The notes beneath the pieces are model-generated. The model made no database searches. It was not told the origin of the DNA and saw only the letters and a program-made list of their open reading frames with translations. The position numbers were made by a program, and so were the translations under genes. DNA of 33,325 nt, taken from a virus. Taxonomy: Duplodnaviria > Heunggongvirae > Uroviricota > Caudoviricetes. This document shows positions 20,640-25,953 of this stretch, in pieces (position 1 is the first letter of the stretch; the number at the start of each line of letters is the position of its first letter). The stretch lies in IMG/VR virus record IMGVR_UViG_2619619132_000007; one strand, given 5' to 3'.

Positions 20640-21663
<1,024 letters not shown>

Positions 21664-21667
<4 letters not shown>

Positions 21668-21975
21668 AGATATTTATGATGAGGACGCTCGTGCTTATTG
21701 GCAGGATTTTCAATCTTAAAGGAGTACTGATGCTGCAGATAAGACTCAACTTTTTCTGACAATTTTTCTGCTACTTCCAGGAAGACTTGCCGGACGCTCC
21801 TTCTGGCTGCTGCCTCATAAAACTCCAGCGCAGCTCCTTCAACACGGTCCATGGCGACATCCAGGTCAAAAATTTCACCGTCAAAGCGTTCTTTGTCCTG
21901 TAAGGCTACAGTTACCGTAACTTTATTCTCAAAATTACGGACTCCTTTCACAACCAGTTCATAGTCTTGAGTCAT
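21664..21975 (-). CDS. ydfR: Hypothetical protein between holin and endolysin (YdfR-like)
   Basis: 103-aa ORF translationally coupled to both neighbours. Confidence 0.55.
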
Positions 21976-21979
21976 TGGA

Positions 21980-22195
21980 TTACTCTCCTCTCGCAGCCTT
22001 ACGCCTGTCTTCTTTAATCTTGAAATAAAGATTTGTCAGATACGTCAGCAGGCCAAAAACCAGGCTACCCAGCACACCGATTGCAGCCCACTGTGACGGA
22101 GTTACTTTATCGAGTAACTGCAATGCCCAGAAACCAGCATTCCCCGCCGATGTGCCATAGGCAACACCTGTTGTTAACTTATCCATTGATTTCAT
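21980..22195 (-). CDS. essQ: Class II holin (S21 pinholin-like) with dual-start motif
   Basis: [71 protein letters not shown]; two TM segments; Met1/Met4 dual start typical of holin/antiholin pairs. Confidence 0.75.
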
Positions 22196-22414
22196 ATCCT
22201 CACCCCGATGTACACGGATGGTGCAATATGTTTGAAAAGATCGGAGTCTACGGGGTAGTTTTGACAGCACACGTTGTTCTCAACGGCGCTAAAAAAACAT
22301 ACACATTAAAAATGTGGGTAATTATTTTGAAAGAAAGTCATATATAAAATAATAATACGAGAAATGTTTTCATATTTAGTGTACTGTATACGGCCATTTA
22401 TACAGGAAAAGCCT

Positions 22415-22585
22415 ATGTCAGAACGTAAAAACTCAAAATCACGCCGTAATTATCTCGTTAAATGTTCCTGCCCAAACTGCACCCAAGAGTCAGAACACAG
22501 TTTTTCAAGAGTACAAAAAGGTGCCCTTTTGATCTGCCCTCATTGCAACAAAGTATTCCAGACAAATCTTAAAGCTGTAGCCTGA
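22415..22585 (+). CDS. Small zinc-ribbon protein (CxxC...CxxC)
   Basis: MSERKNSKSRRNYLVKCSCPNCTQESEHSFSRVQKGALLICPHCNKVFQTNLKAVA; good Shine-Dalgarno (aggaaaag) upstream of ATG at 22415. Confidence 0.45.
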   Translation: MSERKNSKSRRNYLVKCSCPNCTQESEHSFSRVQKGALLICPHCNKVFQTNLKAVA

Positions 22586-22642
22586 TTGATTTTATTAGTA
22601 ACAAGTATTTTTTATATTTTAATAATATATTTAAAGCAGATA

Positions 22643-22666
22643 ATAAAAAACCCGCCTGAGCGGGTT
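22643..22666 (-). terminator. Rho-independent terminator (cspB 3' region)
   Basis: aacccgc-ctga-gcgggtt hairpin with a T-run on the minus strand. Confidence 0.5.
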
Positions 22667-22948
22667 TGAGATTGTGGTGCTTTTTGTGGGAGTCATCCAC
22701 TTACGCACTTTGTTTTGCCATGCCAGCAGTTAGCTTCTGCTGTAAAACTATTCATGCAGCAAACCTGCACTTCACCACAATGGTTAGCATACTTTTCCTG
22801 ATTAAGATTTTGCCAAATATGCTAGCCATTGTTTCATGTATTGGACCTCCTTACTTTTTATTAAAGAGATCCAATATTCACTACTCTGTCCGTATCTCTA
22901 CTCAGGCATCAGCCTTCTTCGTTATCGTATACAGACGAGCGATGAATT

Positions 22949-23164
22949 TTAATCAGTAATGATGACATTTGCTGCTGCAGGACCTTTAGCACCACTCTCT
23001 ATAGAGAAGGTAACCTTTTGACCTTCAAATAAGGTTCGATAATTATCATTCTGAATCGCAGAAAAATGCACAAACACATCTTTACTACCATCAACAGGAG
23101 AAATAAAGCCGAAACCTTTATCAGCGTTAAACCATTTTACTAAACCAGTCATTTTATTTGACAT
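22949..23164 (-). CDS. cspB: Cold-shock protein (CspA family)
   Basis: 71 aa [51 protein letters not shown]... Confidence 0.8.
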
Positions 23165-23464
23165 TCTACATTCCTTAACTTGAGCCTTTCGGCATAAATG
23201 GTTTGCATAACAGAAACGACTTCGTACTTAATTGGAGAGACTCAAAGAAGGAATAAGTGAATAACACCTGAAATGAGAACTGCTTTAGTAAACTACTTCG
23301 TATATCGTCTGTTCTTCAAACCGACGCAATCATTAACGCATAGTTGAACATATGAAGCAATGTTTATTTTAGACATCCAGCCATCTTCAACCCCATCAAA
23401 AAACTATAGCTTTCTTCAGGAACGTGTGTATAGTGCGCCAAGTTATCAGTATTAAGGAATTTTT

Positions 23465-23677
23465 TTGTCCCGTAAAATGACAGGAATTGTCAAAACCTTT
23501 GACGGCAAAAGCGGCAAGGGTCTTATCACCCCATCCGATGGTCGTATCGATGTCCAGCTTCATGTTTCAGCGCTCAATCTCCGCGATGCAGAAGAAATTA
23601 CCACCGGATTACGCGTGGAATTTTGCCGGATAAATGGTCTGCGTGGCCCTTCAGCTGCCAATGTTTACCTTTCATGA
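23465..23677 (+). CDS. cspF: Cold-shock-like protein (CspF/CspH type)
   Basis: 70 aa [70 protein letters not shown]. Confidence 0.8.
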
Positions 23678-23731
23678 GCTATATTAAAGCTTTAATTTCA
23701 GGCCCCATCGGATCACACATGGAGAGTTTTT

Positions 23732-23821
23732 ATGAATAACCCCGTCTGTCTTGATGACTGGTTGATTGGCTTTAAAAGCTTATGCTGTACTTTGGCCGTA
23801 ATAGCTCTGCTAATAATATAA
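23732..23821 (+). CDS. Candidate 29-aa hydrophobic peptide
   Basis: ggagag Shine-Dalgarno 6 nt upstream of ATG; [29 protein letters not shown]; not in the ORF track (under 60 aa). Confidence 0.3.
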
Positions 23822-23971
23822 TAAGCAGACTCATTGTGTTTAGGGACATTGTACTGGAAGAAAACATTTTAAACATCAGGCAAATAACCAAGTCACCAGC
23901 TAAATAATAAGTTAACAGACATGAGTCCCGGGATGAGATTCAACATTACCATTGCCCCATTTAAAGCACAA

Positions 23972-23998
23972 AACCCGCTCATCAGCGGGTTTTCTACT
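23972..23998 (-). terminator. Stem-loop terminator; candidate tR' of the late leader, possibly bidirectional
   Basis: aacccgc-tcatca-gcgggtt hairpin flanked by T-rich runs on both strands; ~40-60 nt downstream of the candidate pR' start. Confidence 0.45.
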
Positions 23999-24038
23999 TT
24001 TTCTTAACGTCGGGTATACAAAGCCCATCGTTGAAAAA

Positions 24039-24067
24039 ATTTTATCCATATTTTTTGAAAAATGCAA
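24039..24067 (-). promoter_or_regulatory. Candidate late promoter pR' (sigma-70, TTGCAT-N17-TAAAAT) just downstream of Q
   Basis: Minus strand ttgcat, 17-bp spacer, taaaat; placed between the Q stop (24099) and the hairpin at 23972..23998, as expected for a Q-modified promoter. Confidence 0.5.
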
Positions 24068-24098
24068 ACATCATGTCGCCATCTTCAGCAAAAATCAT

Positions 24099-24851
24099 TT
24101 ATCTCGTCACCTTCCTCAATTGCGCTTCCGCGTATGCTTCTTCCTGCCAGCACTTTGTTACCAGTTTACCAATGACGTCCGCATACCCCTTATACCACTG
24201 ATAATCGGTCAGGTCTGGTACCAGCTTCTGGACATGACGTCGTGCCAGCGTGGTCGGTAAACGACTAAACCGGTTTCCATTACAACGCCCACAAATCTTA
24301 TATACCGGTACGCCATGAAACCGGGTTCTTTTTTCATCCAGAACAATCCCTTTACCCTTACACCCTCTGCACGCTGTGCTGGCTTCGCCCTTACCATGGC
24401 AATGCTGACATAGTTCCTTCACCCATTCTTCCTTGATTACAGATTCCCCGCGTCTGTAGTGTTTCACCACTTCGCGCAATACATTATAAAATCCCGTACC
24501 TGAACAATGCTCACAGCGAGCCTTACTTGCCGCAGACCTGGAGTAATCAGCAAAGGCAAAACTCACGAGGTAAGGAATAATCTGTAACCGGATTTCTTCA
24601 CTCAATTTGTTCAATGTCGGGTTATCCAGTGCCATCGCGTAATTTAGCAGGCCTTCAATCGCAAACTGAGGGTCCTGAACACCAACTTTTGCCAGAAATA
24701 AGGCCAACCCAAGTGGTGCTTTCGACTGCACCATCCCCTGCGCTGCCATTACATCCGTAATTGTTAAACAACCGGTGCCTGTCGCTGGAGCGTCATCGCT
24801 CAATTTTGGAGATTTTGGGGAGTAATATTTTGGTAAGGCTTCAAGGTTCAT
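24099..24851 (-). CDS. quuQ: Late-gene antiterminator Q (Cys-rich zinc-binding)
   Basis: MNLEALPKYYSPKSPK... 250 aa from the internal Met of the listed 260-aa ORF; CxxC clusters (CEHCSGTG, CQHCHGKG, CRGCKGKG, CGRC). Confidence 0.75.
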   Translation of the reverse strand: MNLEALPKYYSPKSPKLSDDAPATGTGCLTITDVMAAQGMVQSKAPLGLALFLAKVGVQDPQFAIEGLLNYAMALDNPTLNKLSEEIRLQIIPYLVSFAFADYSRSAASKARCEHCSGTGFYNVLREVVKHYRRGESVIKEEWVKELCQHCHGKGEASTACRGCKGKGIVLDEKRTRFHGVPVYKICGRCNGNRFSRLPTTLARRHVQKLVPDLTDYQWYKGYADVIGKLVTKCWQEEAYAEAQLRKVTR

Positions 24852-24864
24852 GCTCGTTCTCCAC

Positions 24865-25953
24865 TTACGCCAGTACGCCAATTGTCAGCGCGCGATCGAT
24901 AAAACGAAATATCAGCTCCAGTTGGGAGCCATACTTATCTTCAAATGCCACTGTATCCGTATGCAGCTCGTTGTGATGCTTTCTGCACAAAGGCAACACA
25001 AAGAGATCATGTGCTTTTGTTCCCATTCCGCCCTGCCCGTGACCAATCAGATGATGCGGATCGTCGGCTGGCATACCGCAGCAAGCACACGGCTGTGTCT
25101 TAACCCAACGTGTGTATTTCTCCTTAACCCAGCGGCGACGTTTAGGCAGCTTCATGAAAGATTCCGGAGACTCTGGATCAACGGTGATGCTTACCACCGT
25201 CTTTTCCTGTGGTGATTTTTGTTGCTGGTGGGCGTAAGGCAACGGTGCAAGATTTTTTGTGCGTTGTTTCAATATGCTGGTGGCGGTCTGCTCTCCCGGT
25301 ACGATGTCGCTTTCGCGGTACACCGAGCAGATTTTTTCCGCTGGTAATCCCAGCGAACGACGCGATACAGCCTCAGGTAGTGCATCCACCACCTGATTGC
25401 AGACCGCCCACCAGGATAATTCAGCCAAAGATAATTCCCGCTCCTGCGTACCGCTTATTGCGTGACGGATGACGTCAATCACCCATGCTGTCAGCTTTTG
25501 TTGAGCAAGCAGCTCCAGTGATTCCGATGTCTGGTCACGCAGTTGGTTGTCGCAGTGCCAGCACAACACCATTGCGCCGGTACCATAACGGTGAATGACT
25601 GTTTCAGTGTGATGGTAATCGCCATTAGGCCACTGGCAGGATGTAACATGACGTAATAGCCAGTCGGACAATGCGCCAACGCCGCCAGCAGCACGAATCA
25701 CCCGTTCGTTACTAAAAAACGGCAGCAATGTTTTGTCTTCCGCCAGCGGCTGGCGAACGGCAGGAACGACTCCGGATGGCAGATTACGCATGCTTTTTGG
25801 TTCCGGTTCCACCAGCACTCGAGGATTATGAAATATCTGTATGGATTCACGGCCCGGCTTAAGGACCACCAGCCCAAGCTCAGGCACCAGAACAGGTCTA
25901 AGTAATACCCGCACGTTACCTCCAGATCCGTTGCTGGAAAGTGCGGGACGCAC
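24865..25953 (-). CDS. ydfU: DUF968-type prophage protein with C-terminal HNH-like zinc-finger nuclease motif (YdfU-like)
   Basis: C-terminal CACCGMPADDPHHLIGHGQGG...CRKHHNELH motif. The listed ORF is 362 aa; the true start may be the in-frame GTG 13 codons in (25914), giving 349 aa. Confidence 0.6.
   Translation of the reverse strand: MRPALSSNGSGGNVRVLLRPVLVPELGLVVLKPGRESIQIFHNPRVLVEPEPKSMRNLPSGVVPAVRQPLAEDKTLLPFFSNERVIRAAGGVGALSDWLLRHVTSCQWPNGDYHHTETVIHRYGTGAMVLCWHCDNQLRDQTSESLELLAQQKLTAWVIDVIRHAISGTQERELSLAELSWWAVCNQVVDALPEAVSRRSLGLPAEKICSVYRESDIVPGEQTATSILKQRTKNLAPLPYAHQQQKSPQEKTVVSITVDPESPESFMKLPKRRRWVKEKYTRWVKTQPCACCGMPADDPHHLIGHGQGGMGTKAHDLFVLPLCRKHHNELHTDTVAFEDKYGSQLELIFRFIDRALTIGVLA

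Follow-up and report, generated by a model that had tools for sequence, protein, structure and literature searches.

In the Q-lambda family of phage antiterminators, the late-control cassette has been defined by a fixed order of elements, namely the Q gene, the promoter PR', the Q-binding element (QBE) and the sigma-dependent pause element (SDPE), followed by a terminator and then the late genes, and the Pfam families of Q-lambda (PF03589), Q21 (PF06530) and Q82 (PF06323) are distinct, with no sequence similarity between them (PMC9388147). In lambda, the -10-like sequence AACGAT at +1 to +6 is re-bound by sigma-70, which leads to the pause at +16 needed for Q loading, and the GGG that follows it is a discriminator-like enhancer of the pause (PMC4005639). 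A short RNA made constitutively in lysogens is the described behaviour of pR' transcripts (PMC7547250). Here we analysed a viral DNA record of 33,325 nucleotides (IMGVR_UViG_2619619132_000007, the whole of which is called the window below), in which a sequence-only reading had proposed a Q-dependent late promoter pR' and its terminator tR' on the minus strand at 23960-24100. All of the elements named in that proposal were located there, and we consider it very probable that the locus is the cassette through which a lambda-family Q of the prophage Qin regulates the late genes. The element is of an ordinary textbook type, and its RNA has already been catalogued as ECS025, without interpretation in the papers examined.

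The 1-kb region that holds the locus is 100% identical to Escherichia phage PhiR42_1, and the 301 bases around pR'/tR' have the same sequence in E. coli K-12 MG1655 (100% identity) and were matched in 1815 of 5426 complete E. coli genomes (about one third). In NC_000913.3 (K-12 coordinate = window coordinate + 1,618,390) the locus is the gap between quuQ (ydfT, b1559) and cspF in the cryptic prophage Qin, a gap which carries no annotation. Published K-12 data on this identical sequence show that uninduced cells make an RNA of about 67 nt that begins at the proposed promoter and ends at the proposed terminator. Its 5' end was mapped by the differential RNA sequencing (dRNA-seq) of Romero et al. 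(2014) in exponentially growing K-12 as a class I transcription start site (TSS), that is, a 5'-triphosphate-enriched leading edge of transcription, listed as RVS_(I)-1640447 with a cluster at 1640444-1640447 in version-2 coordinates (PMC4681348). When converted to window coordinates, which can be done to +/-1 nt, this cluster covers 24033-24030 on the minus strand, with the predicted +1 at A 24032, and a start near 24030 was what the sequence-only reading had called for. The 3' end is given by the Term-seq data of Adams et al. (2021) as an 'orphan' end, present under each of the three growth conditions at 1642356(-) (PMC7815308, supplementary file 1), which is window position 23966 on the minus strand, at +67 and 4 nt past the terminator stem. 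ECS025 itself is listed between cspF and ydfT at 1640375-1640447 with a length of 72 nt (window 23961..24033, minus strand), and in the Northern analysis of Shinhara et al. (2011) it was a constitutive RNA of about 65 nt whose level rose 2-3-fold on cold shock and was unaffected by SOS induction with mitomycin C or UV (PMC3175480). Together, the published TSS, 3' end and Northern band already show the short terminated transcript expected from the sequence alone. The ECS025 paper mentions neither Q, ydfT nor antitermination (PMC3175480), no link of the K-12 transcript to Q was made in the published mapping and Northern papers examined, and in the Cappable-seq supplementary tables no TSS entry near Qin pR' was found. 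Read as the pR'-tR' leader of Qin, ECS025 and the orphan TSS and 3' end of the K-12 quuQ-cspF gap receive an explanation.

The Q gene (quuQ/ydfT, 250 aa; 24099..24851, minus strand, annotated as ydfT b1559 in K-12) is encoded immediately upstream on the same strand, and its stop codon TAA at 24101-24099 lies 66 nt ahead of +1. The protein matched PF03589 (Antiterm) with E = 4e-54 and 181 bits (cut-off 26.7), and its end-to-end identity with lambda Q is 33%. The only domains that Pfam found in it were PF03589 and a DnaJ zinc-finger motif (DnaJ_CXXCXGXG), and the family alignment showed that its zinc-ribbon arm (window 24285-24510, minus strand, residues ~114-188) carries, unlike that of lambda Q, an insertion of 48 aa with two extra CxxC(xGxG) motifs of DnaJ type (PF00684, E = 1.5e-8). 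The length of this insertion varies in the family, from none in lambda, P22 and HK97 to longer ones in Qs of about 40% identity. In lambda, the zinc-ribbon arm of Q contacts the QBE and sigma region 4. The literature search (quuQ; ydfT with antitermination) returned no functional study of QuuQ. The Qin cassette offers a natural second lambda-type Q system, in which the pause element is as in lambda while the Q arm and the binding-site sequence are different.

The geometry of the promoter region is also that of lambda. Where lambda reads TTGACT, 17 nt, TAAATT, TGACTC and AACGATGGG, Qin reads TTGCAT, 17 nt, TAAAAT, TTTTTC and AACGATGGG. The -35 hexamer (24062..24067, minus strand) was read from the sequence and stands, relative to the -10 and the pause element, as TTGACT does in lambda, the -10 TAAAAT (24039..24044, minus strand) was found by sequence reading and by a consensus scan, and the 6-nt discriminator TTTTTC between the -10 and the start is the equivalent of TGACTC in lambda. 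The SDPE AACGATGGG (24024..24032, minus strand) is a 9-mer identical to that of lambda at +1 to +9, at the same distance from the -10 as in lambda pR', and is made up of the -10-like AACGAT at +1 to +6 and the discriminator-like GGG at +7 to +9; it is conserved in most members of the Q-lambda family. The pause-inducing -10-like element for which the sequence-only reading had proposed a search thus exists, at +1 to +6 as in lambda rather than in the suggested range of +10 to +25.

The 17-nt spacer TTTTCAAAAAATATGGA (24045..24061, minus strand) occupies the position of the lambda QBE and shares 11 of its 17 bases with the spacer of lambda. Within it, TTCAAAA...TGG is kept by most Qin-type Q orthologues, in which CTTGCA of the -35 region is conserved as well, whereas the distant Q subfamilies (about 40% identical) have a different spacer, mostly with TTTCC(C/G)GAA. 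The spacer sequence thus differs from one Q subfamily to another, which is how a binding site specific to Q would behave, and the phi80 record annotates a Q-binding site at the same place. From these sequence comparisons the spacer is a candidate QBE, to which Q would bind by analogy with lambda.

The tR' hairpin has a core at 23970..23993 on the minus strand, with a 10-bp stem and a GAUG loop, and an extended stem at 24000-23963, as given by the sequence, the terminator scan and the fold. It reads AAAACCCGCT-GATG-AGCGGGTTTT, followed by GTGCTTT, and spans +40 to +63 counted from A 24032, in good agreement with the GC hairpin that had been expected about 40-60 nt downstream. The fold of the leader gave a minimum free energy (MFE) of -30.4 kcal/mol with z = -5.0, and none of 200 shuffles was as good. 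The leader of 67 nt is, as had been claimed, much shorter than that of lambda (the 6S RNA, 194 nt). With a PF03589 Q upstream, lysis genes downstream, a lambda-identical SDPE and a terminated RNA mapped in vivo, the core of the sequence-only reading, a pR' with its tR', is strongly supported. Lambda and Qin share the Q family, the order of elements, the -35/17-nt/-10/6-nt geometry, the 9-mer at +1 to +9, the partly common spacer, a constitutive short terminated RNA and the lysis genes downstream, and the Qin order agrees with the published definition of the cassette (PMC9388147).

A panel of 28 family members was examined, among them lambda, P22, phi80, HK97, HK620, SfV, ST104 and phages that infect Erwinia, Klebsiella and Vibrio. 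The terminator stem ended at +50 to +70 in 24 of the 28 (+63 in Qin), a leader of about 190 nt occurred only in lambda and Salmonella phage SF6, and a hairpin with a T-run was present in 26, with stem sequences which differ by lineage and always pair. A viral-contig search with the Q alignment gave only 94-100% relatives, and divergent Qs were used as anchors next. The layout in which the promoter and 6 nt lead into the pause element, and a GC hairpin with its T-run follows, recurs after Q orthologues in at least eight genera; it was found in Mangrovibacter, Kosakonia, Phytobacter, Atlantibacter, Scandinavium, Buttiauxella, Entomohabitans and E. albertii, where the Q proteins are 40-71% identical to the window Q. 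The same architecture is seen in P22, phi80, HK97, HK620 and SfV, for which the annotations of the depositors differ: pR', Q site and tR' in P22 and phi80, pR' and qut in HK620, a terminator only in SfV, and none of these in HK97. Ayreon, like SfV, has a terminator annotated at the homologous hairpin.

Among the individual relatives, P22 (gene 23/P late/t late) and phi80 (gp17/pR') are like Qin in Q family, in the position of the pause element and in the short leader (terminator stem end at +57 in P22 and +69 in phi80), and differ from it in the spacer (QBE), the terminator stems and the length of the Q arm; phi80 has AACGCT in place of AACGAT. The Q regions of SfV and of Stx2c phages are closer, with about 90-91% DNA identity to Qin through Q and the promoter and with the same pause element and hairpin position, but they have TAAGAT as -10, a different 3' arm of the 5'-terminal hairpin described below, a different linker and terminator loop, and a longer U-tract.

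Taken together with the lambda model, these data would be accounted for by the following mechanism. Its first part is shown by the published K-12 data: RNA polymerase with sigma-70 starts constitutively at A 24032 (+/-1) and, without Q, stops at the tR' hairpin, so that ECS025 of about 67 nt accumulates in uninduced cells. After the start, sigma region 2 would re-bind the -10-like AACGAT and the polymerase would pause, scrunched, near +16/+17 (24016..24017, minus strand), a position predicted by analogy with lambda (PMC4005639, PMC7876045). QuuQ, once made, would bind the element in the spacer between -35 and -10 and load onto the paused complex, and the Q-loaded complex would then ignore tR' and later terminators and proceed through the csp region to the holin, lysozyme and Rz genes. 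Read-through of tR' would by the same analogy depend on Q. The late (lysis) genes in question are the essQ holin, ydfR, the rrrQ lysozyme and Rz/Rz1 (20640..22270, minus strand; Pfam Phage_holin_2_1 and Phage_lysozyme, and the K-12 annotation), and they presumably depend on read-through of tR'.

Several observations weigh against such a cassette, or against its being intact. The sequence-only reading gave the promoter as TTGCAT-17-TAAAAT on the minus strand just after Q, where it is indeed present, but 'near-consensus' was an overstatement: TTGCAT matches TTGACA at 3 of 6 positions and is weaker than the TTGACT of lambda, the alternative TTTGCA with an 18-nt spacer matches at 4 of 6, and the promoter as a whole reaches 8-9 matches out of 12. 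The -35 is weak. In 3 kb, 8 sites of this kind were picked up by the consensus scan in comparison to 5.7 +/- 2.5 in shuffled sequences, so that the promoter match on its own is no better than chance; what raises the locus above that level is the fold of the leader, the architecture conserved after Q orthologues and the K-12 start and 3' end mapped exactly to these elements. As for the U-rich flanks ascribed to the hairpin, the hairpin was found, but the minus-strand T-run is interrupted (UUUUGUGCUUU), and for this reason the terminator scan made no minus-strand call for it. Near the expected pause site the K-12 leader departs from the family consensus (TATACCCGA vs TATGTCTAC) and differs from lambda too, and a pause at Qin pR' was absent from the RNET-seq supplementary tables searched (Sun 2021). 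In addition, Qin is a defective prophage; since the pause-site region is also off consensus, the Qin switch could be partly decayed. Finally, and unlike in lambda, csp genes and a convergent unit stand between tR' and the lysis genes: cspF-ynfS on the plus strand lies between pR' and the lysis genes, and cspB on the minus strand, with its own 5' untranslated region (UTR) and terminator, also lies between pR' and the holin.

Signs of decay were seen at two other loci of the collection. In E. coli SCPM-O-B-8794 (L017), AAAGAT replaces AACGAT, a change that disrupts the C3:G pair of the 5'-terminal hairpin as well, and in Mangrovibacter plantisponsor (L015) an unrelated terminator follows Q and pR' is not recognisable.

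The alternative that survives best is that ECS025 is a stand-alone gene for a trans-acting small RNA (sRNA), similar to StxS or HnrS, and that its adjacency to Q is incidental. The RNA is abundant, constitutive and raised 2-3-fold on cold shock, and its fold leaves an A-rich single-stranded linker between the two leader hairpins. Precedents exist as well: StxS (Sy et al. 2020), an explicit by-product of antitermination control, is a pR'-tR' RNA which can act as an Hfq-dependent regulator (PMC7547250), HnrS (2026) is an sRNA of 66 nt that comes from the late regions of prophages (PMC13502914), and both resemble ECS025 in being short, abundant RNAs of lysogens that come from a prophage late region and end at an intrinsic terminator. 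However, an unrelated sRNA gene cannot account for a lambda-identical pause element held in fixed geometry to Q across genera, and the linker, where a seed would be expected, is the least conserved part of the leader. Nor is ECS025 among the RNAs that were reported to be lower in an hfq mutant, for which ECS007 and ECS009 were named (Shinhara et al., PMC3175480), and the HnrS fingerprint was not found in the window or in the related loci checked. We therefore regard a stand-alone sRNA gene as unlikely. A dual role of the leader is compatible with a lambda-family cassette and is possible, as StxS is an example of such a leader turned regulator.

Identity of ECS025 with HnrS was considered separately and rejected. 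The fingerprint used was the complement of the last 15 nt of mazF, derived from K-12; this 15-mer is absent from the window and the related loci checked, and the viral-contig scan for it gave scattered environmental matches only, as by chance. RP437, a commensal E. coli strain, is without hnrS according to the HnrS paper (PMC13502914).

Alternatively, the hairpin might be mainly a bidirectional terminator that closes both the early/Q unit and the convergent cspF-ynfS unit, the promoter-like sequence being incidental. The hairpin does lie between convergent genes and has both A-rich and U-rich flanks, and the scan called it (23970-23993, plus strand) as a plus-strand terminator, which would close cspF-ynfS (ynfS end at 23821). 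The primary TSS about 67 nt upstream of the 3' end shows, however, that the terminated RNA begins at a promoter and not in Q, the Term-seq data list no 3' end on the plus strand at this place, and the hairpin is kept where no convergent gene follows it (SfV, P22 and loci with downstream tRNA genes). This explanation is accordingly very unlikely, while bidirectional use of the tR' hairpin within the Q cassette is possible but unsupported. On the minus strand, a second 'orphan' Term-seq 3' end was listed in one growth condition at window position 23798 (K-12 1642188), about 170 nt beyond tR'. It lies antisense to ynfS and coincides with a small AT-rich hairpin (CTGCT..AGCAG), and transcripts that escape tR' may stop there.

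The likeness to the phage 82/21 class, which the sequence-only reading had drawn from the short leader, did not stand. The leader is short (67 nt), but such leaders are typical within the Q-lambda family, so that leader length says nothing about that class; besides, Q matches PF03589 only, neither PF06530 (Q21) nor PF06323 (Q82), and the 9-mer at +1 to +9 is lambda's own. That pR' belongs to the 82 or 21 class is thus highly improbable, and is refuted as far as the family of Q is concerned; the inference has to be corrected in that the class of Q is not readable from the length of its leader. A small protein from the 51-codon open reading frame (ORF) at 24067-23912 (minus strand) can practically be dismissed, since the frame, although annotated as a hypothetical protein in PhiR42_1 (PV340562; L004 3834-3989) and provided with an in-frame AUG at +4, has no Pfam match, has its annotated start upstream of the mapped TSS, runs through the terminator, takes its AUG from the conserved AACGATGGG pause element and is not conserved (AUG GGU UAA in lambda, divergence after codon 5 in SfV), and the PhiR42_1 gene call of 51 aa across promoter, leader and terminator is almost certainly spurious.

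Within the lambda-family cassette of Qin, the leader has a further feature, which is the only part of the analysis that might surprise a specialist. MFE and centroid folds both predicted a 5'-terminal hairpin at +1 to +27 (24006..24032, minus strand), with an outer helix AACG/CGUU, in which +1 to +4 pair with +24 to +27, and an inner helix UGGG/CCCG, in which +6 to +9 pair with +19 to +22. In lambda, P22 and HK225, AACGA can pair with UCGUU at +19 to +23 (lambda locus L003, 781-803). These comparisons point tentatively to a pause element that also forms the 5' arm of a hairpin conserved at the 5' end of the leaders of the Q-lambda family, with the 3' arm at about +19 to +28, a proposal which we find plausible but hold with less than even confidence.

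The pairing was examined in a collection of about 330 loci in 145 clusters, of which about 110 distinct leaders entered the hairpin comparison; start sites have been mapped for only a few family members. For the group with lambda geometry (74 distinct leaders), the complement of the first four nucleotides was sought in +12 to +32. Leaders that begin with AACG carried CGTT in 45 of 50 cases, those with AACA carried TGTT in all 13 (CGTT in only 1), and those with AATG carried CATT in 5 of 7, the other two keeping CGTT, which allows a U-G wobble. Overall, the complement was carried by 85% of the 74 leaders in comparison to 10% in shuffles, and Fisher tests on cluster representatives gave 1e-7, 3e-4 and 3e-8, values which are uncorrected for phylogeny in sequences that are related. 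A sub-lineage with LMessi-type Q (38 distinct leaders, anchored on the -10) served as an independent replicate: the 5' arm TCGT was accompanied by ACGA in 15 of 16 leaders, TTAT by ATAA in 7 of 8, and TCAT by ATGA in 4 of 9, and 68% of the leaders carried the complement in comparison to 12% in shuffles. Across lineages the downstream arm thus changes along with the pause element, the pairs being AACG/CGUU, AAUG/CAUU and AACA/UGUU, and in the second sub-lineage UCGU/ACGA, UUAU/AUAA and UCAU/AUGA.

RNAalifold on a MAFFT alignment of 71 leaders predicted no structure, since leaders with unequal loop lengths have their 3' arms placed in different columns; we treated this result as an alignment failure and not as evidence against the pairing, and used ungapped alignments specific to each geometry with fixed-register tests in its place. 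In the lambda-geometry alignment (16 distinct leaders) 100% of the cells were paired, with changes on both sides in two pairs (C:G to U:A and G:C to A:U), and its covariation score was reached by none of 500 shuffles. In the Qin-geometry set (25 distinct leaders) 97% of the cells were paired in comparison to 29-69% for slid partners, and in seven of the eight pairs only one side varies, through transitions compatible with wobble pairing. When the 5' helix was tested against shuffles sequence by sequence, the results were weak: p was 0.02-0.2 in most leaders and about 1 in two that begin with AATG. The varying loop length and the G-U intermediates favour RNA pairing over an inverted repeat in DNA that is bound by a protein.

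The most likely role of such a hairpin would be to sequester the 5' end, and so to stabilise the short leader (6S, ECS025) and the late mRNA against 5'-end-dependent decay; action after Q loading, for example by keeping the RNA from sliding back through the Q nozzle, is possible. Should the hairpin be real, a single stretch would be under two constraints, as DNA that sigma binds and as RNA that pairs, which would bear on the abundance of pR' leader RNAs and on their availability to evolve into regulators like StxS. No published description of the hairpin was found in the searchable literature, which excludes the older papers on lambda 6S RNA.

The ORFs around the cassette are relBE, hokD, rem, ydfU, Q, cspF, cspB, the holin, ydfR, the lysozyme, Rz and cspI. 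Three csp genes (cspF, cspB and cspI) are present in this late region, and ECS025 itself is reported to rise 2-3-fold on cold shock. An Rfam scan of 22000-25000 at a permissive threshold gave no match at pR'/tR', and returned only the cspA thermoregulator and three sub-threshold matches. The former (RF01766, 158.8 bits, E = 8e-43) corresponds to the 5' UTR of cspB (window 22933-23325, minus strand). One of the weak matches is to isrK, at the terminator after cspB (window 22645-22723, minus strand), with 18.3 bits against a gathering score of 50 and E = 0.7, and is probably due to chance; IsrK is an RNA of Salmonella prophages. In more distant loci of the Q-lambda family, tRNA-like genes come straight after tR', namely in an E. 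coli strain and Entomohabitans (L020 and L021) and in Klebsiella phage 5 (L133), and in L020 and L021 they lie about 140-230 nt past the Q stop, a layout similar to that of Stx phages, in which tRNA genes also follow tR'.

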